Assembly (NCBI GenBank): GCA_011364975.1
Contig: RDOE01000107.1
Coordinates: 1 to 10,135 of the forward strand
Source of the DNA: Promethearchaeota archaeon
Lineage (GTDB): Archaea > Asgardarchaeota > Lokiarchaeia > Sigyniarchaeales > SOKP01
Direction: 5' to 3'
DNA length: 10,135 bases
Positions 1 to 10,135 of the stretch are shown one piece after another. Under the pieces are notes generated by a model. That model saw only the letters and a program-made list of their open reading frames with translations. It did no database searches and was not told the origin of the DNA. The position numbers and the translations under genes were made by a program. Numbering within the stretch: position 1 is the first letter of the stretch; each line of letters begins with the position of its first letter.

Positions 1-791
1 ACAAACGCATTTGATAAGTATTGCGGGCCGGTACCCCAGTCATTAAAATAGACTCTTAATGTTCCTCCTGATAGTTGGTTATCCAGTATGGTTATATTTG
101 TAAACCGAGGGAAACGGTTATAACCATATGGGATATCGTAGGCAAAGGAATTTCCAAATCCAGGATATACATTAAGATATCCAAGAATTCCGTAACCCGG
201 AATACTAGGACCTAGAGGTCCTCGTAATTTTGTTACATTCCAGGACGCAGTTGCATAAGGAGCCCAATCACTTATACTCATCCAATAAAGCGGTCTATTA
301 CCAGTCACAGCTGAATCAACTGTACTTCCAAGACAAAAATTAATATTTCCCAAAATGACCATTTGCCGATCAAGATTCCATTTGCAAACTGTGGCGTTCC
401 AATCTGAGCCATCGTGAAATTTAACATTTTCTCTAAGCGTAATATCCATATAGTCTACTCCATCATAATTCATAAACCCAGCAGCGTTCATTTCATTTGG
501 TCGAGAATGGATCGTCCAGTTGGTTGCAAGTAATGGTACAAAATTATCATAATCTCCAGTTGGCGCTACATATGGTAACTCAAATAATCCTTCAAGAGCG
601 TTATACCTGAAATAATCCCCAGTACTTGCTCCAAAACAAACACCATCCCAATTGCCTATGGGGGCTGGTCCACAAGCTCCCACAGTGAAATTGGGCGTCT
701 CTTCTTGAGCCACAACCACTAAAGGTAAAACTGGAAACACCATAGAAATAATAAGCAGAGAAAAAATTAATCCTTTTGACCAATTTCTCAT
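1..791 (-). CDS. ABC transporter substrate-binding protein, family 5 (DppA/OppA-like); 5' part only, truncated by the window edge
   Basis: Hand translation of the minus strand from ATG at 791 (AAGGAG SD about 10 nt upstream) is open to position 1. It begins MRNWSKGLIFSLLIISMVFPVLPLVVVAQEE (signal-peptide-like) and contains EGLFE...VPLLATNW...ITLRENVKFHDGSDWNATVCKWNLDR, matching the family-5 SBP signature (LA..W...LR..VKFHDG..FNA..VK.S.DR). It is absent from the ORF track because it has no stop in the window. Confidence 0.93.
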   Translation of the reverse strand, partial: MRNWSKGLIFSLLIISMVFPVLPLVVVAQEETPNFTVGACGPAPIGNWDGVCFGASTGDYFRYNALEGLFELPYVAPTGDYDNFVPLLATNWTIHSRPNEMNAAGFMNYDGVDYMDITLRENVKFHDGSDWNATVCKWNLDRQMVILGNINFCLGSTVDSAVTGNRPLYWMSISDWAPYATASWNVTKLRGPLGPSIPGYGILGYLNVYPGFGNSFAYDIPYGYNRFPRFTNITILDNQLSGGTLRVYFNDWGTGPQYLSNAF

Positions 792-862
792 TTTTATTAA
801 TCTCCTTATTTTTCTTGTTGATTACTTCTTATATTTTTTTGTTAAATTTTTTGTATCAAATT

Positions 863-910
863 AATTTACGACGTAAATTTATTTAAAGCTTGTGGAATTA
901 TATATTTAAA
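863..910 (-). promoter_or_regulatory. Putative archaeal promoter plus palindromic operator for the SBP gene
   Basis: The minus strand reads acaaatg-TTTAAATAT(910-902)-N14-TTTAAATA(887-880)-AATTTACG-T-CGTAAATT(879-863). The 17-bp palindrome is perfect, and the same cassette recurs at 7209-7257. Confidence 0.75.
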
Positions 911-1022
911 CATTTGTGAAAATTATAATTTGATGGTAACCAAATTGTGCAATGTAGAAGAAATATAAGGAACATTGCCTTTTTTGATATAATTTAATAT
1001 TAAAAAAATCAGGTTCTAGATA

Positions 1023-1559
1023 ATGTTGCAAGACAAAGAAAAACAATTTAAACCTGACAATAACAAGAAGAAAGGTAAAATAAAAATCGATTTTGGCCGC
1101 CAAGGTGGCACTTTTTTAGCTTATACACTTGTCTTACTAGGATATTATGGGCTTGTTGTTAACATCGTTATGGTTAATGAGTGGTTTTCTCTTACGGAAC
1201 AAACTTGGATAAGTTTTACTGAAATGGATAGAACAGTGTTATTTTGGACTCATGAAACGTATGTAGATACATTCTTTTTGCCTTTAATATTATTATTTGT
1301 TACTTGTTTTTTATTAACTTACAAAGAGGATATTCCGCACTATGGAATAAAAGCGTCAATCTGGCTTGTTCCTTTTATCATTCTTGAAGCGTTTATTTTC
1401 TATACATTCATGTTTGGTTTTAGTTTAGAGCCATTTATCCTACAATTTGGAAATTGGAACGGTTATCTCCATATTATTATTTTAATGGCAACCACGCTCT
1501 CTGGTGCTATAAGTGGTATGAAACTCAAACAATTAATTATATCAAAAAGAAAAATATAA
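1023..1559 (+). CDS. Hypothetical integral membrane protein (about 4 TM helices), first gene of the transporter operon
   Basis: 178-aa ORF with AGGT 8 nt upstream of ATG, a Lys-rich N-terminus, four hydrophobic stretches and a basic C-terminus. It ends 46 nt before the dppB-like gene on the same strand. No family recognised. Confidence 0.8.
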   Translation: MLQDKEKQFKPDNNKKKGKIKIDFGRQGGTFLAYTLVLLGYYGLVVNIVMVNEWFSLTEQTWISFTEMDRTVLFWTHETYVDTFFLPLILLFVTCFLLTYKEDIPHYGIKASIWLVPFIILEAFIFYTFMFGFSLEPFILQFGNWNGYLHIIILMATTLSGAISGMKLKQLIISKRKI

Positions 1560-1605
1560 TAAAAAAATTAAAACGATAAAATATCCAAAATAAGGGGAAA
1601 AAAAG

Positions 1606-2676
1606 ATGGCAAAACAACCAAAAAATATGATAAAATATATCATCAAACGGATATTAATGATGATTCCGATGTTGGTCTTAGTTCTAACTCTTTCTTGGCT
1701 CTTATCATATTTAATGGTACAACAAAATTTAGTTAATCCGGTTGCTGGTAGATTGGGTGCTACTCTTGATCCTGATATCATTGAAGCAGAATTACGGAGA
1801 ATTGGATACTATGATCCTTGGTTTGTTCAACTTGCTATATATTATAAGAATTTCTTCACAGGTAATTGGGGTCTCTCTTATAATATTATGCGAGATAAAC
1901 CCGTAATAGATTTAATATCAGAAATATTTCCAAGAACAATAGAATTAATGATAATCCCAATTATATTAAGTCCTATACTCGCAGTTAAACTTGGAATAGC
2001 TTCTGCAACCCATAAGGATAAATCAAAAGATGTAGGTGTTAGAACTATTGCAATCTTAGGAGCGGGCTTCCCGATTTTCTGGATTGCTGACATGATCCAA
2101 CGCTTTTTTGGGTACTATGTAAGTAATTTTACATATGAAAGCTTCGATATACCTGCATTTTTCGCAAATACTCCTGGATTAAGCCCGACCCCTCCACGTA
2201 TAACAGGATTTCGGATTATTGATAGCATACTAGCTAATAACCAAATTTACTTAATAGACACGATTATTCATTTGATACTGCCAGCTATATGTATAACTTT
2301 TGTCTCATTGGCGAGTATGACAAGACAAACGCGATCAAGCATGTTGGATGTTTTAAATCAAGATTATATCAGAACTGCTCGAGCTAAAGGTGTGTTAGAA
2401 CATGATGTAATAAACAAACATGCGATTCGCAACGCATTATTACCTGTCAGTAATCTTATTGTAGGAGGTACAGCGACTGCATTATTAGGCTCGTTTTTCA
2501 TAGAGGTTACGTTTAATTATAAAGGTTATGGCTATTACATGGTAATTTCTATATTAACAGGAGATTACCTAGTTACCCTCGGGCTCTTGGTATTTGCTAC
2601 CATAATAATCCTCACAGGGACTTTAGTAGCTGATGTTTTATATACCATCATTGACCCCCGAATTACATATACATAA
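1606..2676 (+). CDS. dppB: Peptide/nickel-family ABC transporter permease (DppB/OppB-like)
   Basis: N-terminal YIIKRILMMIP, DPWFVQLAIY...GNWGLS, FPRTIEL, HLILPA, EAA loop TRSSMLDVLNQDYIRTARAKG..KHAIRNAL and C-terminal ADVLYTIIDPRI. The symbol is family-level only. Confidence 0.95.
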   Translation: MAKQPKNMIKYIIKRILMMIPMLVLVLTLSWLLSYLMVQQNLVNPVAGRLGATLDPDIIEAELRRIGYYDPWFVQLAIYYKNFFTGNWGLSYNIMRDKPVIDLISEIFPRTIELMIIPIILSPILAVKLGIASATHKDKSKDVGVRTIAILGAGFPIFWIADMIQRFFGYYVSNFTYESFDIPAFFANTPGLSPTPPRITGFRIIDSILANNQIYLIDTIIHLILPAICITFVSLASMTRQTRSSMLDVLNQDYIRTARAKGVLEHDVINKHAIRNALLPVSNLIVGGTATALLGSFFIEVTFNYKGYGYYMVISILTGDYLVTLGLLVFATIIILTGTLVADVLYTIIDPRITYT

Positions 2677-2687
2677 AAATTGAGAGG

Positions 2688-3698
2688 TTGTTTAAAATAG
2701 CTGAACAAATTTTGAAAGAGAAAAAGGTAGAGGAGCGCACTCCTTCGGAATTCTCGAGAAAAGTGAAATTTCTTCGATTCTTAAAGTTCTATTTAATTCC
2801 TGGTTGGCGGGATCCAGACTTTTCTTTGCAAGAATATGAGATTGAAAAAGTAAAATCTAAAAGGAGATTGTTTCGACACCTTGTTAAACCTCTTACAATA
2901 ATAGGACTATTAATGATTTTATTTATTACTGTATTAGCTATATTTACACCTTGGCTGACAATCTATCCATTACAAGATCTAGTAGTACCAAATATTCCAC
3001 CTAGTCCACATGTGTTTGCTCCCCCGTCAGCAGAACATCCGTTAGGGACAACTTATAACGGATACGATGTTTTAGCTAGAATTATTTGGGGGGCTAGAAC
3101 TACAATTTTAACATCGTTGATCCCCGTAACAATATCCATTGGAGGGGGTCTTATTTTAGGCATTATTTCTGCGTATTTCGGTGGGGTTGTTGATTATCTT
3201 ATGATGCGCTTTGTAGACTTATTCTACGCTTTTCCAACACTGATACTCATTATCATAATTACTCCTCTAGTTGGTAGCGATTTATTAACTCTTCTTGTTA
3301 TTTATGGACTTCTTTTTATACCACTTAATATAAGGTTCATGCGATCCCTTGTTTTCCAAGTAAAGCAACTTGAATACGTCCAAGCCGCAAAAGTAGGCGG
3401 TGCGTCAAAGTTCACTGTAATGTTTAAACATATTTTACCAAACGCAATATCCCCTATGTTAATATCTTTTTTTGGAGGTGCCGCAATAGCAATTATAGGC
3501 TTAGCAGGTCTTGCGTTTATAGGATTTTCAGACAATACTGTAGCAAGTTGGGGTCTTGATATTTTATGGGCTCGAGGAAAATTTAGCAATATCAGCGCTG
3601 CTGTTTGGCCTGGATTGTTTATTGGAATTGCTGCCATAGGATATATACTCGTTGGAGACGGATTGCGGGATGCACTTGATCCAAGACTAAAATTATAA
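2688..3698 (+). CDS. dppC: Peptide/nickel-family ABC transporter permease (DppC/OppC-like)
   Basis: PPSAEHPLGTTYNGYDVLARIIWGARTT, MRFVDLFYAFP, EAA loop EYVQAAKVGGAS...KHILPN and C-terminal GDGLRDALDPR. The start is uncertain: TTG at 2688 abuts the GAGG SD, while ATA at 2697 has better spacing. The symbol is family-level only. Confidence 0.95.
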   Translation: MFKIAEQILKEKKVEERTPSEFSRKVKFLRFLKFYLIPGWRDPDFSLQEYEIEKVKSKRRLFRHLVKPLTIIGLLMILFITVLAIFTPWLTIYPLQDLVVPNIPPSPHVFAPPSAEHPLGTTYNGYDVLARIIWGARTTILTSLIPVTISIGGGLILGIISAYFGGVVDYLMMRFVDLFYAFPTLILIIIITPLVGSDLLTLLVIYGLLFIPLNIRFMRSLVFQVKQLEYVQAAKVGGASKFTVMFKHILPNAISPMLISFFGGAAIAIIGLAGLAFIGFSDNTVASWGLDILWARGKFSNISAAVWPGLFIGIAAIGYILVGDGLRDALDPRLKL

Positions 3699-3714
3699 AT
3701 AGGAGGGATCGAAC

Positions 3715-5673
3715 ATTTTAACTACAATATATCAAACGGAATTTGGATTAAATTACGGAAGAGCTATAATAGGGTCAATTTTTATTGCGGTTGCTTTATA
3801 TTTAATTTCAAATTTTATCAATAATCAAATTCCTGAGGAGCATCAACTTTCAAAAAAAGTGTTTAAAAAAAGTTCGGCAGTAATTTGTATTATATTATTA
3901 GGTATTATATTTGGTATTAAATCTCTTTTTGAAACTTTAGGATATTTTAATTACATATTTTTAATTTTCAATAATGATGCTGTATCATTCGCAATAATAA
4001 CAACACTATTTTACTTATTATATAAAAAAATGGTATTAAAGGGCAAAAGATTTGGAGCCTCAGAAGATGAATCCGTTAATAATCCATTTATGAAAATATA
4101 TAAAATATTTATTCTAATAACTTGGATAATTTCGATAATATTTATTTCAATTCCTCTTTTAGGGATTCAAAGGACTCAAACGATAGGACCAATAAAAGTT
4201 GACATTTTTTACCTTGGATTTATATGGGCAGGATTTACCGTTGGATTTGATATTCTCATCACAATTCTAATTAATAAGGTTCGTACAATTGAGAAGCAAA
4301 TTCCTGAGATACCTTTAAAATATGCTATGTATTCTGGGGGGCTAATCTCATTTGGAATTTGGTCAATACAATTAGTAATCTTTGAATTATATTTGAAAAG
4401 GTTATTTGGCATAATAGCATTTGATCAAGATATTCGAATATTAATTATTGTTATTAGCGGTCTTTATGCTGTCATATTTTATATATCATTGAAAAAGAAA
4501 TTTATGCCAAGTGCAAAGGAGAGGAGTGCGTTAAAACTCCAAAAAGCTTTAGAATTATTGAAAGATGAATCCTTAGAACTCTCTAAATTAAGCAGCAATC
4601 ACATTATTCTTAATGTGAAAGACCTTACCACATACTTTTATACAGAAGAGGGAGTCGTTCGTGCAGTTGAAAATGTTTCTTTTAAAATATTTGAAGGCGA
4701 AACTCTTGGTCTTGTAGGTGAAACTGGTTGCGGGAAATCGGTTACTGCATTATCGATTGTCCAACTAATACGTCCTCCAGGAAAAATAGAAAAAGGAAAT
4801 ATCTTATTCAGAGGAGAAGATTTATCTTTAAAATCGGAATCAGAGATCTTAAAATATCGTGGAAAAGATATAACTATGATTTTTCAAGATCCACTTAATT
4901 CACTTAATCCCGTTTTTAAGATAGGTAAACAAATATCGGAAGTATTTTTATTGCATATGGAAAATGAGCTACTGGTTGAAACTGCTAAATATCCTGATAA
5001 AAGTGTAAATAGTATCGCTCAGGAAAGGAGTGTAGCTCTTTTGAAAGATCTAAATATACCCCGTCCTGAAATAATTTTTGATAGATATCCACATGAATTA
5101 AGTGGTGGGATGCGACAAAGAGTTCAGATTGCGATGGCATTGGCATGCAGACCTAAATTACTCATTGCTGATGAGCCCACTACTGCGTTAGATGTTACAA
5201 TTCAGAACCAAATATTAAAACTGATGAAAGATCTACGTGTGAAATACAATACTAGTATATTATATATTACGCACGATTTAGGGATCATCTCTAAAATGTG
5301 TGATCGTGTTGCTGTAATGTACAGCGGATTTATTGTTGAATATGGAGATATAAAGAAGTTATTAACTAATCCTTATCATCCATATACGAGGGGACTTATA
5401 ACTTCTATTCCTGTTGTCGGAAAGAAGCAAACTAGACTTGAAGTTATACCGGGAATGGTCCCAAATCTAATTTATCCCCCTTCAGGATGCAGATTTCATC
5501 CTAGATGTAAATATTGTTTTGAGCCTTGTGATTCAATAGTTCCAAAAGAAAATGAGGTTGCGAAAGATTATTTTGTGGCATGTCATTTATATGATCCAGA
5601 ATATAAACCTTTAGCAGAAATAAGTATAAATAACGTAGAAGGTAAAAATGAGGTGGAGTATATCAATGAATAA
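3715..5673 (+). CDS. dppD: Peptide ABC transporter ATPase (DppD/OppD-like) fused to an N-terminal multi-TM domain
   Basis: Walker A GETGCGKS (4717-4740), Q-loop MIFQDP, signature LSGGMRQR, Walker B LLIADEPTTALD, H-loop ITHDL and C-terminal HPYT...GCRFHPRC...C...ACH. Roughly the first 260 aa are hydrophobic (about 7 TM). The ORF track starts at GTG 3859, but the frame is open from 3703 and AGGAGG (3701-3706) sits 8 nt before ATT at 3715, so the start given here is inferred. Confidence 0.92.
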   Translation: MLTTIYQTEFGLNYGRAIIGSIFIAVALYLISNFINNQIPEEHQLSKKVFKKSSAVICIILLGIIFGIKSLFETLGYFNYIFLIFNNDAVSFAIITTLFYLLYKKMVLKGKRFGASEDESVNNPFMKIYKIFILITWIISIIFISIPLLGIQRTQTIGPIKVDIFYLGFIWAGFTVGFDILITILINKVRTIEKQIPEIPLKYAMYSGGLISFGIWSIQLVIFELYLKRLFGIIAFDQDIRILIIVISGLYAVIFYISLKKKFMPSAKERSALKLQKALELLKDESLELSKLSSNHIILNVKDLTTYFYTEEGVVRAVENVSFKIFEGETLGLVGETGCGKSVTALSIVQLIRPPGKIEKGNILFRGEDLSLKSESEILKYRGKDITMIFQDPLNSLNPVFKIGKQISEVFLLHMENELLVETAKYPDKSVNSIAQERSVALLKDLNIPRPEIIFDRYPHELSGGMRQRVQIAMALACRPKLLIADEPTTALDVTIQNQILKLMKDLRVKYNTSILYITHDLGIISKMCDRVAVMYSGFIVEYGDIKKLLTNPYHPYTRGLITSIPVVGKKQTRLEVIPGMVPNLIYPPSGCRFHPRCKYCFEPCDSIVPKENEVAKDYFVACHLYDPEYKPLAEISINNVEGKNEVEYINE

Positions 5674-7069
5674 AACTCGTATTCTAAAAATAATCATTGG
5701 CTTGTCACTTATTTCAATGTACACAGTTTTGATAATAACAATAACGTATTACTTATTAGTGACCACCACTCCTCCTATGACCGTATTTATAATGGAAGAC
5801 TTTTTACTTTTTTTTAGTGTTGCTTACATTATTTCATTTTTTATCATTAACTGGGATGCTCGATCCCAATTAATTAGAGTGAAGCTCCATTTATATGAAA
5901 TTTCAGCACTTATTAGTACGGTCTTAATCTTTATTCCTTTACCAGAATTTATCTCAGGTAACTTTTGGGTATTTGTTATTATTTACAGTTTAATCTCAGG
6001 GATTATTAGTTTTGCTATTAAATATGTGACATTTAAAATAATTAAGGTTGAAAGATTTAGTGAAATCACTACTCTCAAACCAAGCAGGAATTTACTTGAA
6101 GTTAAAGTTCTTAGAGTACATTATCCTCTCCTAGGAGGTATTTTGAAAAGAAGAATAGGAGCTGTTAAAGCAGTTGATGGAGTTACATTTGATGTTAATA
6201 TTGGTGAAACAGTTGGATTAGTAGGAGAGAGCGGGTGTGGAAAAACAACTATCGCAAAAGCGATCCTAGGTTTAGTGGATATAACTAACGGAAAAATCCT
6301 CTTTCAAGACAAACCAATTCCTCCGGATTATTCATCTTATTTAAGGCAAAAGATTCAAATGATTTTCCAAGACCCTGATGCTTCATTGAATCCTCGTAAA
6401 AAAGTTGTTGACATCATAGCAGAGCCTCTCAAAAACCTTCTTGCTATATCTGATAAAATAAAACTCAGAAAAAGGGTTCTAGCATTATTAGAACAAGTAT
6501 CCTTAAAACGAGAACATATGGACAGATATCCTCACGAATTCTCAGGAGGACAAAAGCAAAGAATAGTTATAGCTAGAGCTTTAGCTTGCAATCCAGAATT
6601 GATAATTTTAGATGAACCTACATCCGCCCTTGATGTATCCGTTCAAGCACAAATTCTTAACCTGCTTAAAGATTTGCAAGGAACATATGGCTACGGATTT
6701 TTATTTATTACCCATAATTTAGCGGTTGTATCCCATGTTGCGGATCGTGTAGCTGTTATGTATCTTGGTAAATTTGTAGAGGTTGGAAGTAAGGAACAGA
6801 TTTTTTCAAATCCAACTCATCCCTATACCCGAGCCCTCCTCGCCTCGCGTTCTGAGATCAACCCTTACAATCAAGATATCAGTTTTGTTATTAAGGGAGA
6901 AGTCCCAAGCCCTATAGCTCCACCACCTGGTTGTACGTATAATCCACGCTGTACTTCTGAATTTCGCACAAAAGAGTGTGAATTAAATATTCCTCATAAG
7001 ATTGAAATTGAAGAAGGTCACTTTATATGGTGTAATAATCCACCGTCCTCTACACCGTCAAAAGTTTAA
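5666..7069 (+). CDS. dppF: Peptide ABC transporter ATPase (DppF/OppF-like) fused to an N-terminal 4-TM domain
   Basis: VKAVDGVTF, Walker A GESGCGKT, MIFQDP, FSGGQKQR, LIILDEPTSALDVSVQAQ, ITHNL and HPYT...GCTYNPRC...C...WC. I place the start at ATG 5666 (GAGGTGGAG SD at 5650-5658; 8-nt ATGAATAA overlap with the dppD stop) rather than 5648. Confidence 0.93.
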   Translation: MNKTRILKIIIGLSLISMYTVLIITITYYLLVTTTPPMTVFIMEDFLLFFSVAYIISFFIINWDARSQLIRVKLHLYEISALISTVLIFIPLPEFISGNFWVFVIIYSLISGIISFAIKYVTFKIIKVERFSEITTLKPSRNLLEVKVLRVHYPLLGGILKRRIGAVKAVDGVTFDVNIGETVGLVGESGCGKTTIAKAILGLVDITNGKILFQDKPIPPDYSSYLRQKIQMIFQDPDASLNPRKKVVDIIAEPLKNLLAISDKIKLRKRVLALLEQVSLKREHMDRYPHEFSGGQKQRIVIARALACNPELIILDEPTSALDVSVQAQILNLLKDLQGTYGYGFLFITHNLAVVSHVADRVAVMYLGKFVEVGSKEQIFSNPTHPYTRALLASRSEINPYNQDISFVIKGEVPSPIAPPPGCTYNPRCTSEFRTKECELNIPHKIEIEEGHFIWCNNPPSSTPSKV

Positions 7070-7202
7070 TTATTTAAAGAGAATTTGCTGGCTAAATAAA
7101 TAAAAATTTTTCGTCCCTAACCTCAATATAAGGCTTAAAGTATTAAGGCAGTTAACATATATTATATTTAGAAGGTTGTTTATTGAAACTTAAAAATCTC
7201 TA

Positions 7203-7259
7203 GAAAGTTTTAAATATTTTATTATACATACTTTTAAATAAATTTACGACGTAAATTTA
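7203..7259 (+). promoter_or_regulatory. Putative archaeal BRE/TATA promoter plus palindromic operator for the GRE gene
   Basis: gaaagt-TTTAAATAT(7209-7217)-N15-TTTAAATA(7233-7240), then the palindrome core. The perfect 21-bp palindrome TAAATTTACG-A-CGTAAATTTA spans 7239-7259 and ends 27 nt before ATG 7287. Confidence 0.78.
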
Positions 7260-7286
7260 ATTAATAATAAAAACAATTGTTAAATT

Positions 7287-9734
7287 ATGGTAGTTCAAGA
7301 TTTGAAGATGACCCCTCTTCAAGGGATACCTTCAGAGAGGGTCCGAAAGATTAGAGATAGAATGCTCTCTATGCCTCGAGAGCTTGATCTTGAGCGTGCT
7401 CGATGTTATACAAGAATATATAAACAAATGGAAGATGCTCCTCCTTGTATGAGGAATGTCAAAGCATTAGAAGAATTTTTACGCTGTCTACCAATAAGAA
7501 TTGATGAAGATGAGCTTCTCGTGGGTGTAAAATCTAGTAAAGTTAGAGCTGATCCAATAGAAATAGAACGGGGAATGCGTGTTAAACTTTTGGGACTTGT
7601 CGTTAGTGAAAAAATAGATCCAAAAGTTAAAGCGATGCTTATTTCAAAAATTTCTTTTATTAACCGATACGCACCTTTGACTGAAGAAGAAATGAAAGAG
7701 TTGAGGGATGAAATTCTGCCTTTCTGGGATGGAAGAACGGTAGCAGATAAAAAGATAGAAAATTGGAAAAAGGCGGGTTTAGTTGAGGATCCAAAGGGAC
7801 CTATCCCTTCAATGCTACTCATTAGTTTTGGGAGCGGTACTGATTTGTTTGCTGGTTCTTCGGGTCAAGGACATGTTATTCCAGGTTATAGGCGAGTTCT
7901 TAAAATGGGATTTCGAGGAATTGAAAAGATGGCGGAAGAGGGACTCGCCAAACTCAATGAGACAGATGAAAAGTATGACCAGCGCAAAGATTTTTATGAA
8001 TCAGTAATTGTTGCTGCACGAGCGGTTTGTGATTATTCCAATCGCTATGTTGATCTCGCAATAGAAATGGCGGAAAATGCATCAGAAACAAGAAAAGCTG
8101 AGCTGTTAGATATTGCTGAACGTGCAAGACGGGTACCTGCACTACCACCTAGAACGTTTATGGAAGCCCTTCAGTCAATTTGGTTTACGAATGTAGTGAT
8201 GGAGATGAGCTATGGTGAAGGGAATATATTCTCTCAAGGACGAGTTGATCAATATCTTTATCCATATTACGCAGATGACTTAGCAGAAGGTCGTATTACT
8301 TATGAGGAAGCGGTAGAAGCAATTGAGGAATATTTAGTTAAACTTTCTTCTGTTGTTATAGCCGGACAGAACAATGTAACTATTGGGGGATTAGATAAGG
8401 ATGGAAAGGATGCCACTAATGATGTATCTTACATGTTCCTCGAAGCCATTTCTAACGTAAAAAGTTTATTGAATACTTTATCAATAAGAATTTCTTCAAA
8501 GTCTCCCCGTGATTTTCTGAAAAGAACTCTTGAAGCTTTTAAATATACAGCTGGAATGGGAATTCATAATGATGAGGTCTTAGTACCACAACTTCATGAT
8601 ACAGGATATTCATTAGAAGATGCCCGAGATTATTCCATCGTTGGTTGCGTAGAACCACATGGCACAGGGAATGACTTCTCTTATACTGCAGGTAATGCAG
8701 TTCAGATTTCAATCCTTTTAAACATGGCTTTAAATGAAGGCCGTACACTTTTATCAGGAAAAGAGACTGTTGGGGCAAAAACACCCCCGGCTAGTACTTT
8801 CAAAACTTTTGAAGATGTAAAAAAGGCGTTTGTAGACCAACTTAAATTCGCGATAGATCTTTGCGTAAGAAAGGCTGAGATAAAAGATAAAACATTTGCA
8901 GAATATTTGCCTTCTCCGTTACTTTCTTCTTCAATAGAGGGATGTCTCGAAAGTGGAATGGATGCAACTCGAAATGGAGCTAAATATAATAATAACCCAA
9001 TGGGCTCACAAGGGCTTGGTACTGTGGTTGATTCCTTAGCAGCGATTCGGTGGGCAGTATTTGAAGAAAAATTAGTTACCATGGAAGAATTAGTAAACTT
9101 CATGAATAAAAATTTCAAGGGGGCCGAAGAACTTCGGGAAAAATTACGAAATAAAGCTCCCAAATTTGGTAATGGTGATGAAAGAACCGATGAATTAGGC
9201 AGATGGGTAGCTCAAACTCTATGTGATCTTACAAGACATTATAAAGCGAGAGGCGGAGATGGTATCTATCATAATTGCCTTGTATCTTCTGGAACACAGA
9301 TTATAGAGGGTAATTCATTAGGTGCAACCGCAGATGGTAGATTAAAAGGTGAACCCGTAGCGAACGGTATCTCTCCTTCAAATGGCACAGAAAAGAATGG
9401 CCTTACGATGACACTCAAATCAGTAGCTTATGCGACAGCTGAACCTCATTTAACTAATGGAGCATCATTTAATATTAGATTAAATCCAAGTATTCTTCAA
9501 ACAGATGAAGGCCTCGATCAATTAACGTCAATAGTAGAGGCATACTTAGACTTAGGAGGACGAGAGCTTCAAATAAATCCAATAAGTTCAGAAACTCTTA
9601 GAGACGCGCAAGCTCATCCAGAGAATTATCCTGACTTATCAGTTAAAGTAACAGGTTACTCCGCTCGATTCATTGATTTAACAAAAGAGCTTCAAGATGA
9701 TATCATCGCAAGAACAGTATTTAATGAAGTATAG
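7287..9734 (+). CDS. Glycyl radical enzyme (PFL2/glycerol dehydratase-like family), substrate unknown
   Basis: 815 aa with ERARCYT...LPIRIDEDELLVG, GHVIPGY (His196), PPRTFMEALQ..WF, GRVDQYLYPYY, a Cys loop IVGCVEP (Cys454), GATADGR..G.P.A.G.SP and a C-terminal Gly loop HPENYPDLSVKVTGYSARF (Gly790). It has a single active-site Cys, so it is not canonical PflB. Confidence 0.95.
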   Translation: MVVQDLKMTPLQGIPSERVRKIRDRMLSMPRELDLERARCYTRIYKQMEDAPPCMRNVKALEEFLRCLPIRIDEDELLVGVKSSKVRADPIEIERGMRVKLLGLVVSEKIDPKVKAMLISKISFINRYAPLTEEEMKELRDEILPFWDGRTVADKKIENWKKAGLVEDPKGPIPSMLLISFGSGTDLFAGSSGQGHVIPGYRRVLKMGFRGIEKMAEEGLAKLNETDEKYDQRKDFYESVIVAARAVCDYSNRYVDLAIEMAENASETRKAELLDIAERARRVPALPPRTFMEALQSIWFTNVVMEMSYGEGNIFSQGRVDQYLYPYYADDLAEGRITYEEAVEAIEEYLVKLSSVVIAGQNNVTIGGLDKDGKDATNDVSYMFLEAISNVKSLLNTLSIRISSKSPRDFLKRTLEAFKYTAGMGIHNDEVLVPQLHDTGYSLEDARDYSIVGCVEPHGTGNDFSYTAGNAVQISILLNMALNEGRTLLSGKETVGAKTPPASTFKTFEDVKKAFVDQLKFAIDLCVRKAEIKDKTFAEYLPSPLLSSSIEGCLESGMDATRNGAKYNNNPMGSQGLGTVVDSLAAIRWAVFEEKLVTMEELVNFMNKNFKGAEELREKLRNKAPKFGNGDERTDELGRWVAQTLCDLTRHYKARGGDGIYHNCLVSSGTQIIEGNSLGATADGRLKGEPVANGISPSNGTEKNGLTMTLKSVAYATAEPHLTNGASFNIRLNPSILQTDEGLDQLTSIVEAYLDLGGRELQINPISSETLRDAQAHPENYPDLSVKVTGYSARFIDLTKELQDDIIARTVFNEV

Positions 9735-9736
9735 AC

Positions 9737-9766
9737 TTTTACTTTTTTTTATATTTTTATTTTTTT
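9737..9766 (+). terminator. Oligo-T tract, probable archaeal-type terminator of the GRE gene
   Basis: ttttacttttttttatatttttatttttttg begins 2 nt after the TAG stop. No GC hairpin is present. Confidence 0.6.
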
Positions 9767-9817
9767 GAAAACGAGTATTACCTTATTTAGGCTAATATTA
9801 AAAAATTAACATTGCAT

Positions 9818-10135
9818 TTAACGAGTTAAACCAGACCACTTAACATTTCTAGCACCAGTATTTGATGCAATTTCAAGAAATTTATCCATCTCCTCTACTG
9901 TCATTAAACGCTCATCCTTTAAAATCCATGTTATACCTAGTCTTGAATATTTTATTTCGCAGAGTTTATTGAAACTTAATAAGTCCCATTTATCAGGTAT
10001 GTTATTTAATTCATTAACAATAAATTGTCCAATTCTTTTTATATTCTCTTCTGTTGCCGTGTAATGGGGTATTATCGGTGTTCTTATCCACATTATTTTT
10101 CCGTTTTCTTTGACATATTCAGCCATCCATTTAGC
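9818..10135 (-). CDS. Glycyl-radical enzyme activating enzyme (radical SAM, PflA/PflC-like); 3' part only
   Basis: The frame stays open to the window end (..AKWMAEYVK..), so ATG 10126 is probably internal. The sequence MWIRTPIIPHYTATEENIKRIGQFI...WDLLSFNKLCEIKYSRLG matches the C-terminal activase pattern (IRxPxIPgxnd.xeni...eLLpyh.lg..KY..LG). It lies next to a GRE. The CxxxCxxC motif would be outside the window. Confidence 0.85.
   Translation of the reverse strand, partial: AKWMAEYVKENGKIMWIRTPIIPHYTATEENIKRIGQFIVNELNNIPDKWDLLSFNKLCEIKYSRLGITWILKDERLMTVEEMDKFLEIASNTGARNVKWSGLTR

Follow-up and report, generated by a model that had tools for sequence, protein, structure and literature searches.

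The locus described here is probably a TetR-repressed, substrate-inducible module with which Asgard archaea import a compound and cleave it with an oxygen-sensitive glycyl radical enzyme (GRE), a reading built from comparative sequence analysis. The window, i.e. the whole 10,135-bp stretch that was analysed, is an entire contig of a Lokiarchaeial MAG from sediment (genome size 3.74 Mb; G000 below), and both of its ends cut genes. An earlier sequence-only reading had described a cluster of a family-5 solute-binding protein, a Dpp-type importer, a GRE and an activase, and Pfam and NCBIfam searches found all of these in the window. The same reading had called the DNA "Asgard-like". The genome is indeed Lokiarchaeial, and the best matches of the GRE (93-64% identity) are, where named, all Asgard, being assigned to Lokiarchaeota, Promethearchaeota, Thor-, Odin-, Hod- or Hermodarchaeota. 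The features of the window are as follows.

3..791, minus strand: family-5 solute-binding protein, N-terminal 263 aa (Pfam SBP_bac_5, 27.3 bits), truncated by the contig end
863..879, no strand: operator copy 1, palindrome AATTTACGACGTAAATT, just downstream of the binding-protein TATA box
880..888, minus strand: TATA-like box TTTAAATAA of the binding-protein gene, seen in the sequence and kept in the G012/G029 alignment; putative promoter element
1023..1559, plus strand: 178-aa membrane protein with three hydrophobic segments, first gene of the permease operon
1606..2676, plus strand: DppB/OppB-type permease (BPD_transp_1, 109.9 bits)
2688..3698, plus strand: DppC/OppC-type permease (BPD_transp_1, 97.7 bits; OppC_N, 23.5 bits)
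3859..5673, plus strand: DppD/OppD-type ATPase, 604 aa (ABC_tran at residues 271-442, oligo_HPY at 493-557)
5648..7069, plus strand: DppF/OppF-type ATPase, longest ORF 473 aa (ABC_tran at 177-326, oligo_HPY at 377-444)
7232..7240, plus strand: TATA-like box TTTAAATAA before the GRE gene, seen in the sequence and kept in G012 and G029; putative promoter element
7241..7257, no strand: operator copy 2, palindrome AATTTACGACGTAAATT, with its end 30 nt upstream of the GRE start codon
7287..9734, plus strand: GRE, 815 aa (Pfam PFL-like, 536.2 bits; Gly_radical, 85.4 bits)
9818..10135, minus strand: GRE activase, C-terminal 105 aa, convergent with the GRE gene and truncated by the contig end

The 815-aa protein belongs to the GRE superfamily, scoring far above the cut-offs of PF02901 (536.2 bits; cut-off 24.3) and PF01228 (85.4 bits; cut-off 22.2). 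It carries the CXE motif of GRE 1,2-eliminases and isomerases as G453-C454-V455-E456 (GCVE), in which Cys and Glu align with Cys433 and Glu435 of glycerol dehydratase. The counterpart of His164 in that enzyme is His196, and Gly790, within KVTGYSARF, aligns with its RVAGYSA. All 43 Asgard rows of the alignment retain both the CXE motif and the His at the His164 position, L075 having Ala rather than Val as the middle residue. The catalytic roles that we assign to the CXE and His residues are those given in a 2026 review of GREs.

The window GRE does not fall within any curated family. Its identity to glycerol dehydratase, CutC and HypD is 31-33% (33% for glycerol dehydratase, 31% for a HypD named by PGAP), and every NCBIfam equivalogue score lies below half its cut-off: 462.5 bits against 1050 for CutC (TIGR04394), 485.5 against 1100 for HypD (NF043068), 489.6 and 443.1 against 1000 each for HpsG (NF048011) and HpfG (NF048009), 132 against 994.2 for pyruvate formate-lyase (PFL; TIGR01255) and 402 against 1109 for the formate C-acetyltransferase model NF007437. 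The glycerol dehydratase and PFL2-3 subfamily model TIGR01774 gives 543 bits, under its cut-off of 678.2. Among solved structures, the top match by score is choline TMA-lyase (9f3w, 447 bits). The predicted pocket also differs from those of the nearest characterised enzymes. The window GRE has Ile at Ser282, Ala at Asp447 and Val at Tyr640 of glycerol dehydratase, and a 10-residue active-site loop, which carries Tyr339 in glycerol dehydratase, is deleted; we take these four residues to be the polar glycerol-binding residues of that enzyme. Where CutC has the Asp of GGGD, which presumably binds the trimethylammonium group, the window GRE has His (GQGH). In a phylogenetic tree, a long branch with full support separates the Asgard GREs and their 50%-identical bacterial sisters from glycerol dehydratase, HypD and CutC. 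These comparisons are best read as marking a new clade of GRE 1,2-eliminases that has no characterised member, and the earlier suggestion of a GRE with possibly new specificity thus gains support from both the tree and the model scores.

GREs are numerous in these archaea. G000 encodes about eight, at least one is present in 49 of 61 relatives, and Asgard loci carry two to four tandem copies that differ at positions aligned with the substrate contacts of glycerol dehydratase. A 70-aa GRE tail encoded on contig C19 was considered as a conserved spare-part gene and rejected, there being no close stand-alone copy in 40 relatives. The tail aligns best with the ends of full-length genes and, judging from these alignments, is more likely a remnant.

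Evidence that the importer and the GRE belong together came from synteny in 38 related Asgard loci. In 16 of the 29 loci that could be assessed, the GRE array directly follows dppBCDF, and one more locus has the importer genes inverted nearby; a GRE without importer occurs in 12 of the 29. G012 and G029 have the same genes as the window, one for one. The 16 importer-GRE loci are labelled Promethearchaeota, Hodarchaeota or Odinarchaeota, with importer identity down to 59-69%. The sequence-only reading had proposed that it should fall if the two were never co-located or co-regulated in relatives, and this outcome is set aside because importer and GRE adjoin in many of them. The runs listed for the window number 20, all of DNA type, none of RNA, and from 6 studies, with sources given as marine sediment, estuary, mangrove or soil, or coded.

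The binding-protein and GRE genes also share an operator. A repeat search of the window returned a 29-nt direct repeat (858-886 and 7236-7264, 93%) and a 41-nt inverted match (847-887 and 7233-7273, 85%). Within these, the 17-nt core AATTTACGACGTAAATT is identical at both sites (two matches where 0.12 are expected; none of 200 shuffles reaches two), and, in the sense of its own gene, each site reads TTTAAATAA-ATTTAC-N3-GTAAAT. Across the whole genome, the 25-nt composite of TATA box and palindrome occurs at these two sites only at up to 2 mismatches, all others having 3-4. In a footprint alignment of G012, G029 and G025, the half-sites are invariant and the 3-nt centre is variable. The near-identical cassette that had been noticed at the two promoters is therefore conserved in relatives as well as in the window.

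Operators were then counted in the 38 Asgard loci, non-independent samples from related genomes, as ATTTAC-N3-GTAAAT with up to 2 mismatches within 130 nt upstream of a gene (background rate 0.035 per 160 nt). By this count, the operator precedes 30 of 47 GRE genes, 17 having no canonical copy, along with 10 of 12 binding-protein orthologues and 10 of 18 TetR genes. It precedes none of 63 dppB, dppC, dppD or dppF genes, none of 10 genes for aldehyde:ferredoxin oxidoreductase (AOR) or alcohol dehydrogenase (ADH), 1 of 27 activase genes and 6 of 157 other ORFs. Among the 30 operator-bearing GRE genes, the start of the operator mostly lies 44-47 nt upstream of the start codon, and ATAAATAA or TTAAATAA precedes it in most related loci. 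An operator common to importer, GRE and activase, as initially proposed, thus holds for the binding-protein and GRE genes, and not for the activase or the permease and ATPase genes. The divergent region between the binding-protein gene and the permease operon has a single operator, downstream of the binding-protein TATA box only, which leaves control of the permease operon unaccounted for.

The best candidate for the protein that binds this operator is a TetR-family regulator, whose gene is found in 18 of the 38 loci, usually divergent from the activase gene. Profile searches identified TetR_N domains in the locus copies and in a protein encoded on contig C72 of G000. The C72 protein, although not encoded at the window locus, belongs to the same orthologue group (63-73% identical overall), and NNLYNYVESKRELWIAIRKKF in the N-terminal DNA-binding domain is nearly invariant throughout, the C72 copy included. 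No canonical operator was found before the C72 gene, where there are only half-sites 10 nt apart. Matches to solved TetR structures are of low identity (best E 2.6e-10), and B. subtilis FadR (3whb) is among the weak ones (E 3e-6, residues 22-192). Because regulator and operator co-occur, and because operator copies precede 10 of the 18 TetR genes themselves, we infer that TetR binds the palindrome ATTTAC-N3-GTAAAT.

The activase is represented in the window by its last 105 aa, which match NCBIfam PFLA and PFLE_PFLC (about 1e-11) and score 42.4 bits against TIGR02494 (cut-off 174.35). In G012 the orthologue is complete and shares 72% identity with this fragment; it reaches 301.8 bits with the same model and has Radical_SAM and Fer4 domains. 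The activase N-terminus was not found in the G000 assembly, and because the contig ends inside this gene, AOR, ADH and TetR genes are not seen beside the window GRE. Elsewhere, the locus includes both AOR, whose nearest solved relative is 1AOR (348 bits), and an iron alcohol dehydrogenase (Fe-ADH) in 5 of 38 cases, all in the Loki-genus group, and AOR alone stands at the end of a sixth locus, L075. The copies of AOR and ADH that match best in G000 (66% and 52%) lie on contig C160 in another context. Acyl-CoA genes occur in the context of the bacterial GRE relatives. Together with the AOR and ADH genes and the less polar predicted pocket, they suggest that the product is a carbonyl compound formed from a less polar hydroxylated one. 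This is a different direction from the modified peptide, polyol or glycoside offered by the sequence-only reading, although those classes may still apply.

The importer has the components of an Opp/Dpp-type system: a family-5 binding protein, two BPD_transp_1 permeases and two ATPases with oligo_HPY domains. None of its proteins reaches a Dpp, Opp, Gsi, Nik or Cnt equivalogue cut-off in NCBIfam; the best matches of the DppB-like permease are Opp4B and DppB, each under its cut-off. The binding-protein fragment scores 27.3 bits against SBP_bac_5, under the cut-off of 32.4, whereas full-length orthologues pass with 73.6 and 82 bits. The fragment has a signal peptide and one hydrophobic segment (residues 4-22), and its orthologues in G012 and G029, 768-770 aa long, are 73-82% identical to it. 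A search of solved structures with the full-length G012 protein for a clue to the ligand gave a single weak match (E 2e-4 over 32 residues), and NCBIfam gave none. The 178-aa membrane protein has no Pfam or NCBIfam match. In 9 related loci a copy with 60-84% identity stands at the corresponding place, and its nearest Protein Atlas clusters are archaeal hypotheticals only; by these comparisons it is an Asgard-only hypothetical family. The N-terminus of the DppD-like ATPase is unusual in being extended by about 245 aa, with about six hydrophobic segments, and its C-terminus has a four-Cys motif, CRFHPRCKYCFEPC. The extension gave no usable match in the Protein Atlas, and it is kept in G012 and G029, where the protein aligns over its full length at 78-79% identity. 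The DppF-like ATPase also has a hydrophobic N-terminal extension; relatives align only from residue 44-47 onward, and the true start may lie downstream of that of the longest ORF. G000 has two more Dpp-type systems, on contigs C65 and C106.

Starting from the gene identities, the conserved synteny, and the conservation and placement of the operator and the catalytic residues, all of which are observed, a mechanism can be proposed for the binding of the operator, the imported compound and the reaction. In front of the binding-protein gene and of each GRE gene, TetR would occupy the palindrome, which is placed after the TATA box and before the start of transcription, and would keep RNA polymerase from being recruited until an inducer arrives. 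The Opp/Dpp-type importer, with its 770-aa binding protein, two permeases, two ATPases and small membrane protein, would then take up the compound, which would be the substrate of the GRE. Once the activase had generated a glycyl radical on Gly790, a thiyl radical at Cys454, with Glu456 as base and His196 as acid, would drive a 1,2-elimination beside a hydroxyl group, dehydration to a carbonyl product being the likeliest reaction. In the closest relatives, the genes that come next encode AOR and Fe-ADH; by analogy with clostridial glycerol or propanediol fermentation, an aldehyde product could be oxidised by the former or reduced by the latter.

Other interpretations of the GRE were considered. 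According to section 5.7 of the 2026 review, GRE isomerases keep the same CXE motif, so that elimination and ring-opening isomerisation both fit it. An isomerase of the YbiW, PflD or HplG kind would act on an imported cyclic compound, for example a cyclic amino acid or an anhydro-sugar, and break a C-O or C-N bond of the ring beside a hydroxyl; the product would be an isomeric ketone and not an aldehyde. Sugars are among the solutes that family-5 binding proteins can carry, solved PflD (322-332 bits) and YbiW (308 bits) score about like several eliminases, and AOR and ADH are absent from most Asgard loci. However, the conserved core has no kinase, aldolase or sugar-phosphate gene, the NF007437 score is far under its cut-off, and the AOR and ADH of the closest relatives suit an aldehyde better; we consider an isomerase unlikely. 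Somewhat less likely still is cleavage of a C-N or C-S bond as by CutC, IslA or HpsG, which would release an amine or sulfite and an aldehyde or ketone from a quaternary amine or a sulfonate. Choline TMA-lyase is the top solved match, aldehyde-handling genes would suit such a product, and there are two single cases of suggestive neighbours: a TauE/SafE sulfite-exporter gene adjoining the GRE in G038 (contig C106) and an MttB-family gene 3.6 kb from the G013 copy. Against this stand the low CutC, HpsG and HpfG scores and the His at the CutC Asp position. The 2026 review gives Arg/Gln/Arg as the sulfonate anchor of sulfonate GREs.

The importer and the GRE might instead be unrelated neighbours, with an ordinary peptide importer and a palindrome that serves a general regulator. 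Opp/Dpp systems are mostly peptide importers, further systems of this type exist in G000, and many assessable loci have the GRE without the importer. Nevertheless, the order of binding protein, permeases, ATPases and GRE recurs in 16 loci even as importer identity falls to 59-69%, the operator is limited to binding-protein, GRE and TetR promoters with two composite sites genome-wide, and the binding protein has no close solved relative, all of which makes a chance association very unlikely. Least probable of all, and hardly credible, is that the GRE is an alkyl- or benzylsuccinate synthase or a PFL. Database names such as "pyruvate formate lyase family protein" and "formate C-acetyltransferase" suggest the latter, and a paper on Hermodarchaeota assigned Asgard GREs with a Gly-Cys (single-cysteine) loop to Ass/Bss. 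In print, Asgard GREs have been taken for hydrocarbon-activating enzymes, on thin grounds. Both identities were rejected on model scores, on the Gly-Cys rather than Cys-Cys loop and on solved-structure scores, in which MASS (246 bits) and BSS (235 bits) fall far under the eliminases (333-447 bits). The conserved CXE Glu and His also speak against them, and an importer with a binding protein is ill-suited to hydrocarbons. Among ORFs of at least 80 aa there is no candidate for the small subunits of BSS or MASS: no free ORF of that length lies between the ATPase, GRE and activase genes, save out-of-frame ORFs inside the GRE gene.

Within the preferred reading of an import-and-cleave module, a more far-reaching version is conceivable, and we hold it to be a long shot: the Asgard GREs could be a new class of radical C-O-cleaving enzymes acting on larger, less polar hydroxylated compounds of sediments, with carbonyl products passing through AOR and acyl-CoA steps into beta-oxidation. 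Candidate substrates may include glycerol monoethers, vicinal diols and lignin-derived aryl-glycerol ethers. If this were true, an archaeal GRE would have its first assigned function, such compounds would have an anaerobic route not known before, and the importer, with its membrane-anchored ATPases and extra subunit, would be a new Opp/Dpp variant adapted to such solutes.

The locus is attractive because it offers three independent handles on one substrate: a dedicated binding protein, a putative repressor with a defined 15-17-nt operator, and an enzyme with its activase. The substrate, if found, would indicate which sedimentary organic matter these archaea use, and the fastest-growing GRE class would gain one or more new specificities. 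The 2026 review describes all characterised PFL-like GREs as bacterial and names archaeal GREs as a clear gap. A literature search on Asgard and Lokiarchaeial GREs, which took in neither subscription journals nor supplements, found no paper on this clade or locus. The locus offers a practical way to learn what archaeal GREs do.

There are parallels with the B12-independent glycerol dehydratase locus of Clostridium butyricum (gene order GRE, activase, Fe-ADH) and with propanediol dehydratase, including the CXE motif, the His164 equivalent, a dedicated activase and an adjoining Fe-ADH. The closest Asgard relatives add an aldehyde oxidiser, a tungsten-type AOR, and because they also encode this enzyme, the aldehyde could be both reduced and oxidised. 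One difference is that the Asgard locus has no microcompartment and instead has an ABC importer and a TetR operator; moreover, the window GRE is 33% identical to glycerol dehydratase and has the glycyl motif KVTGYS, not RVAGYS. With CutC, HypD, HpyG, HpzG, IslA, IseG, HpsG, HpfG, HplG, YbiW and PflD, the window GRE has the fold, the CXE motif and the radical chemistry in common. Their solved members score 308-447 bits against it, and none passes as its family. The sole solved archaeal PFL-like GRE, Archaeoglobus fulgidus PFL2 (PDB 2f3o; 374 bits), is distant and scores no better than the bacterial enzymes; its function is described as debated in the 2026 review.

The importer shares the five-component layout of DppABCDF, OppABCDF, GsiABCD and NikABCDE. 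Unlike these, it has a binding protein of about 770 aa with almost no solved relative, hydrophobic N-terminal extensions on both ATPases and an extra 178-aa membrane protein at the head of the operon. The regulator resembles TetR-family catabolic repressors such as FadR/YsiA of Bacillus subtilis in its TetR_N domain, its short palindromic operator and the position of its gene beside its putative targets, and autoregulation is likely here too, judging from the operator copies. FadR of Sulfolobus acidocaldarius is another catabolic repressor of this family. The Asgard operator differs from those of the repressors compared in its predicted position, after an archaeal TATA box and ahead of the start site.

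The window carries a family-5 binding-protein gene, a divergent permease operon and a glycyl radical enzyme (GRE) gene facing the end of its activase gene.

Genes of the window, from the ORF listing and from Pfam and NCBIfam scans
791..3, minus strand: family-5 solute-binding protein, N-terminal 263 aa, with signal peptide; truncated by the contig end
1023-1559, plus strand: membrane protein, 178 aa, no family
1606-2676, plus strand: DppB-like permease
2688-3698, plus strand: DppC-like permease
3859-5673, plus strand: DppD-like ATPase
5648-7069, plus strand: DppF-like ATPase
7287-9734, plus strand: GRE, 815 aa
10135..9818, minus strand: GRE activase, last 105 aa, convergent

The window equals contig C14 in its entirety (10,135 bp); this contig stops within the activase gene, the remainder of which is absent from the source assembly (G000; 3.74 Mb in 200 contigs, ~30-34% G+C). 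The named best homologues of the GRE, at 93-64% identity, carry Lokiarchaeota, Promethearchaeota, Thor-, Odin-, Hod- and Hermodarchaeota labels, all of them Asgard, so the sequence-only reading had guessed the host correctly.

The element shared by the binding-protein and GRE genes emerged from a repeat search of the window, which returned a direct repeat of 29 nt at 93% (858-886 and 7236-7264) and an inverted match of 41 nt at 85% (847-887 and 7233-7273). The perfect palindrome core, AATTTACGACGTAAATT, lies at 863-879 and 7241-7257; these two matches compare with 0.12 expected in the window, and none of 200 shuffles reached two. Read in the sense of its gene, each copy is TTTAAATAA-ATTTAC-N3-GTAAAT, a TATA-like box with the palindrome directly after it. 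The 12 specified bases alone are not rare in the genome (3 matches vs ~2.2 expected from base composition); the 25-nt composite occurs at ≤2 mismatches genome-wide only at the two window sites, other matches having 3-4 mismatches. The proposal that these clustered genes share an element is confirmed, well beyond chance. Because archaeal TATA boxes are centred ~26 nt upstream of the transcription start site, the GRE-side palindrome, which ends 30 nt upstream of the start codon, would span about -22 to -6 relative to the start site, and a protein occupying this stretch would keep polymerase from being recruited.

Both intergenic regions can be aligned with those of two related genomes, G012 and G029. 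The half-sites do not vary, whereas the three bases between them do (CGA, CGG, CTG or CTC on the GRE side, GAT on the other), a pattern that would be expected for a dimer-binding site. A wider count covered 38 Asgard loci from public genomes with GREs of at least 69% identity, which come from related genomes and are not independent. ATTTAC-N3-GTAAAT was sought at ≤2 mismatches within 130 nt upstream of every ORF, against a background rate of 0.035 matches per 160 nt.

Operator matches upstream of ORFs in the 38 Asgard loci (ORFs with operator/ORFs)
GRE: 30/47
Binding protein: 10/12
TetR: 10/18
178-aa protein (same divergent region as the binding protein): 4/9
dppB/C/D/F: 0/63
Activase: 1/27
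AOR and ADH: 0/10
All other ORFs: 6/157

In most operator-bearing GRE genes, ATAAATAA or TTAAATAA stands ahead of the operator, whose start lies 44-47 nt upstream of the start codon. The transporter core genes and the activase are without the operator, and the suggestion that the activase falls under the shared operator was not upheld, with a single activase gene preceded by one. Loci lacking the canonical operator (L060, L062, L071, L072, L078, L079, L080) have, by eye, other palindromes at the same promoter position, such as AAATGAA-N5-TTCATTT in L080; another, ACATTT-N9-AAATGT, overlaps the TATA box. Such palindromes suggest that there may be paralogous repressors with shifted specificity.

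A candidate regulator for the operator came from the far side of the loci. Beyond the activase, G012 and G029 have an aldehyde:ferredoxin oxidoreductase (AOR), an iron alcohol dehydrogenase (ADH) and then a divergent TetR-family gene. In the related genome G060, the TetR gene diverges from an FAD oxidoreductase-activase pair, with a two-mismatch palindrome in the divergent region and another palindrome before the first GRE gene. The TetR gene, present in 18 of the 38 loci, marks the cluster edge, since UvrA, IF-2 and CCA-adding enzyme genes lie past it. NNLYNYVESKRELWIAIRKKF in its N-terminal domain varies hardly at all among the copies, the TetR on contig C72 of G000 included. This C72 protein has 63-73% identity with the locus copies, and its gene is flanked on one side by a metallo-beta-lactamase-fold gene and on the other by genes for short-chain dehydrogenase and enoyl-CoA hydratase. 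Given this co-occurrence and the palindrome copies before TetR's own gene, we infer that TetR binds the palindrome and that the control element is part of a putative TetR regulon.

The gene set of the window is reproduced one for one in G012 and G029 (GRE 89-92% identical, importer proteins 73-89%). The GRE lies at a contig edge in nine of the 38 loci, which are not assessable; among the 29 that are, dppBCDF immediately precedes the single GRE or the GRE array in 16, is nearby but inverted in one and is absent from 12. One subclade accounts for six of these 12, each a single extra copy, and for five of the six the source MAG also holds another listed locus, with the importer in three cases and with its upstream side cut by the contig end in two. 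The window-GRE orthologue is patchy in the genus, found at ≥69% identity in 4 of 36 genomes searched; some GRE (E up to 1e-100) was found in 34 of 36. The conserved core is importer, GRE or GREs, activase and TetR. The coupled uptake and glycyl-radical catabolism of new specificity proposed for an Asgard host is largely borne out: the cluster stood, and the operator's reach to the activase and transporter core did not.

In many loci, a single importer and a single activase accompany a tandem run of two to four GRE genes: four in L060, three in L062 and, by the listing, two each in L049, L051, L057, L058, L068, L071, L053 and L047. In most two-copy arrays, each GRE copy has its own TATA-plus-operator; L060, L062 and L071, called as three- and four-copy arrays, have a different palindrome in its place. 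Tandem copies differ mainly in two stretches aligned with pocket positions that contact the substrate in glycerol dehydratase, the first reading GNAVQI, GNGVRL or GNGIWF and the second HNCLVS, RPCLVS or RTYFVS, and such paralogues would be tuned to related substrates. Two further loci depart from the common layout. Downstream of a solo GRE copy, L070:14162-21412 holds a UDP-glucose dehydrogenase-type gene and, in tandem, four genes for family-5 binding proteins of ~590-610 aa. In L038/L072 (G038:C106), the GRE match is in two pieces (residues 1-193 and 269-815), and the record contains a run of N. Genes for a TauE/SafE sulfite exporter and a DUF1254/DUF1214 protein lie nearby, with the dpp genes downstream in inverted orientation.

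Both ATPases of the window have N-terminal hydrophobic extensions (3859-4593 and 5648-6082), of ~245 aa with about six hydrophobic segments in DppD and ~100-145 aa with three to four in DppF, which in relatives are conserved along with the rest of the protein. No Opp/Dpp ATPase extended in this way is known to us from earlier descriptions. The first gene of the permease operon (1023-1559) encodes a membrane protein of 170-180 aa whose hypothetical family is confined to Asgard archaea; because this protein recurs beside the two other Dpp-type systems of G000 (C65:8121-8630; C106, about 87494-87919), it may be an extra transporter subunit. A paralogous module that has no GRE, G000:C65:1-11245, combines Dpp permeases and a membrane-extended ATPase with a family-5 binding protein of 823 aa and the small membrane protein. 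It also encodes an AMP-forming acyl-CoA ligase and a TetR in which the sequence of the N-terminal DNA-binding domain is almost unchanged. The third Dpp system, on C106, is without the ATPase extension.

The window GRE passes the Pfam GRE domains and scores below every curated NCBIfam cut-off: 543 against 678 for the PFL2-3 subfamily, 490 against 1000 for HpsG, 486 against 1100 for HypD, 462 against 1050 for CutC and 132 against 994 for PFL. It is 33% identical to Clostridium butyricum glycerol dehydratase, 32% to Klebsiella CutC and 31% to a PGAP-named HypD, enzymes that are 32-39% identical among themselves. In a FastTree phylogeny of 53 rows, rooted at midpoint only and with long branches flagged, the 43 Asgard sequences group together as a single clade (support 100) adjoined by six bacterial homologues of ~50% identity; a long branch splits this group of 49 from glycerol dehydratase, HypD and CutC (support 100). 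Concordant HMMER (to 1r8w) and MAFFT alignments map Cys433, Glu435, His164 and Gly763 of glycerol dehydratase to Cys454, Glu456, His196 and Gly790. At the residues that we take to bind glycerol, Ser282, Asp447 and Tyr640 are replaced by Ile, Ala and Val, and the loop with Tyr339 by a 10-residue deletion; the pocket would be larger and less polar than in glycerol dehydratase. The whole clade, bacterial sisters included, has QGH, the short loop and G-C-[VA]-E in common (GCVE, with two exceptions among the sequences examined), and the glycyl motif KV[TS]GYS, one bacterial sequence having RVSGYC.

A different assignment appears in the accessible part of a paper on Hermodarchaeota, where Asgard single-Cys GREs are taken as alkyl- or benzylsuccinate synthases. 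For the clade of the window GRE, this reading is opposed by the importer, by the conserved Glu and His and by scores against solved GREs (308-447 bits for eliminases and isomerases, 235-246 bits for succinate synthases). The roles of Cys433, Glu435 and His164 in glycerol dehydratase are stated in the accessible part of a 2026 review, which lists known GRE eliminases and isomerases and gives all characterised PFL-like GREs as bacterial. The window GRE is probably a 1,2-eliminase, most likely a dehydratase, of a CXE-type clade with a predicted remodelled pocket. The literature searched yielded no description of this clade or operon, and the accessible part of an archaeal microcompartment preprint holds nothing on the locus.

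Besides the window GRE, G000 encodes about seven paralogues that share 27-37% identity with it (C123, C200, C159, C130, C51, C147, C75); that on C51 is split over two frames, and that on C147 has an esterase, a sulfatase and an activase of its own alongside. A stand-alone 70-aa ORF (G000:C19:2124-2336, minus strand) copies the glycyl-radical tail of the window GRE family. Its identity is 83% with the window GRE itself and rises to 91-93% with the ends of the G013 and G012:C97 paralogues. Its homology extends slightly upstream of the ATG, up to a stop codon. It is probably the remnant of a lost paralogue; a GrcA-like spare part is possible.

Clues to the downstream chemistry came from gene neighbours. 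Metagenome stretches matching the clade number 568, of which 80 were retained. Around bacterial homologues of the GRE, ORFs were scanned in 12 longer metagenome loci of 73 listed, selected by length of contig: five have a TetR-type regulator, three a family-5 binding protein or dpp genes, two acyl-CoA dehydrogenases, and one each an enoyl-CoA hydratase, a thiolase plus short-chain dehydrogenase, a CoA-transferase plus acyl-CoA synthetase, and 2-hydroxyacyl-CoA dehydratase components plus a CoA ligase. A Liv-type transporter and an X-Pro dipeptidyl peptidase are further neighbours. Beside the GRE homologue, L109:6342-7295 and L162:6713-7639 combine a MerR helix-turn-helix with TetR_N in a single ORF, an unusual regulator architecture provided that the ORF calls are right. 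Among Asgard loci, L044 and L056 have an enoyl-CoA hydratase within the locus, and L043, L045 and L078 have thiolase, MaoC or AMP-ligase as flanking genes. There is a lean towards a GRE product ending as acyl-CoA, but a weak one, given how widespread genes of this kind are in the genomes concerned.

Only 5 of the 38 loci carry AOR together with ADH, and L075 has AOR alone at its end; the best G000 copies (66% and 52%) lie on contig C160 among unrelated genes. Among solved structures, the G012 AOR comes nearest to the broad-range enzyme of Pyrococcus (1aor, 348 bits). The dehydratase locus of C. butyricum has the order GRE, activase, iron ADH; by this comparison, the Loki-genus loci are laid out like a diol-dehydratase fermentation in which AOR would take the oxidising branch.
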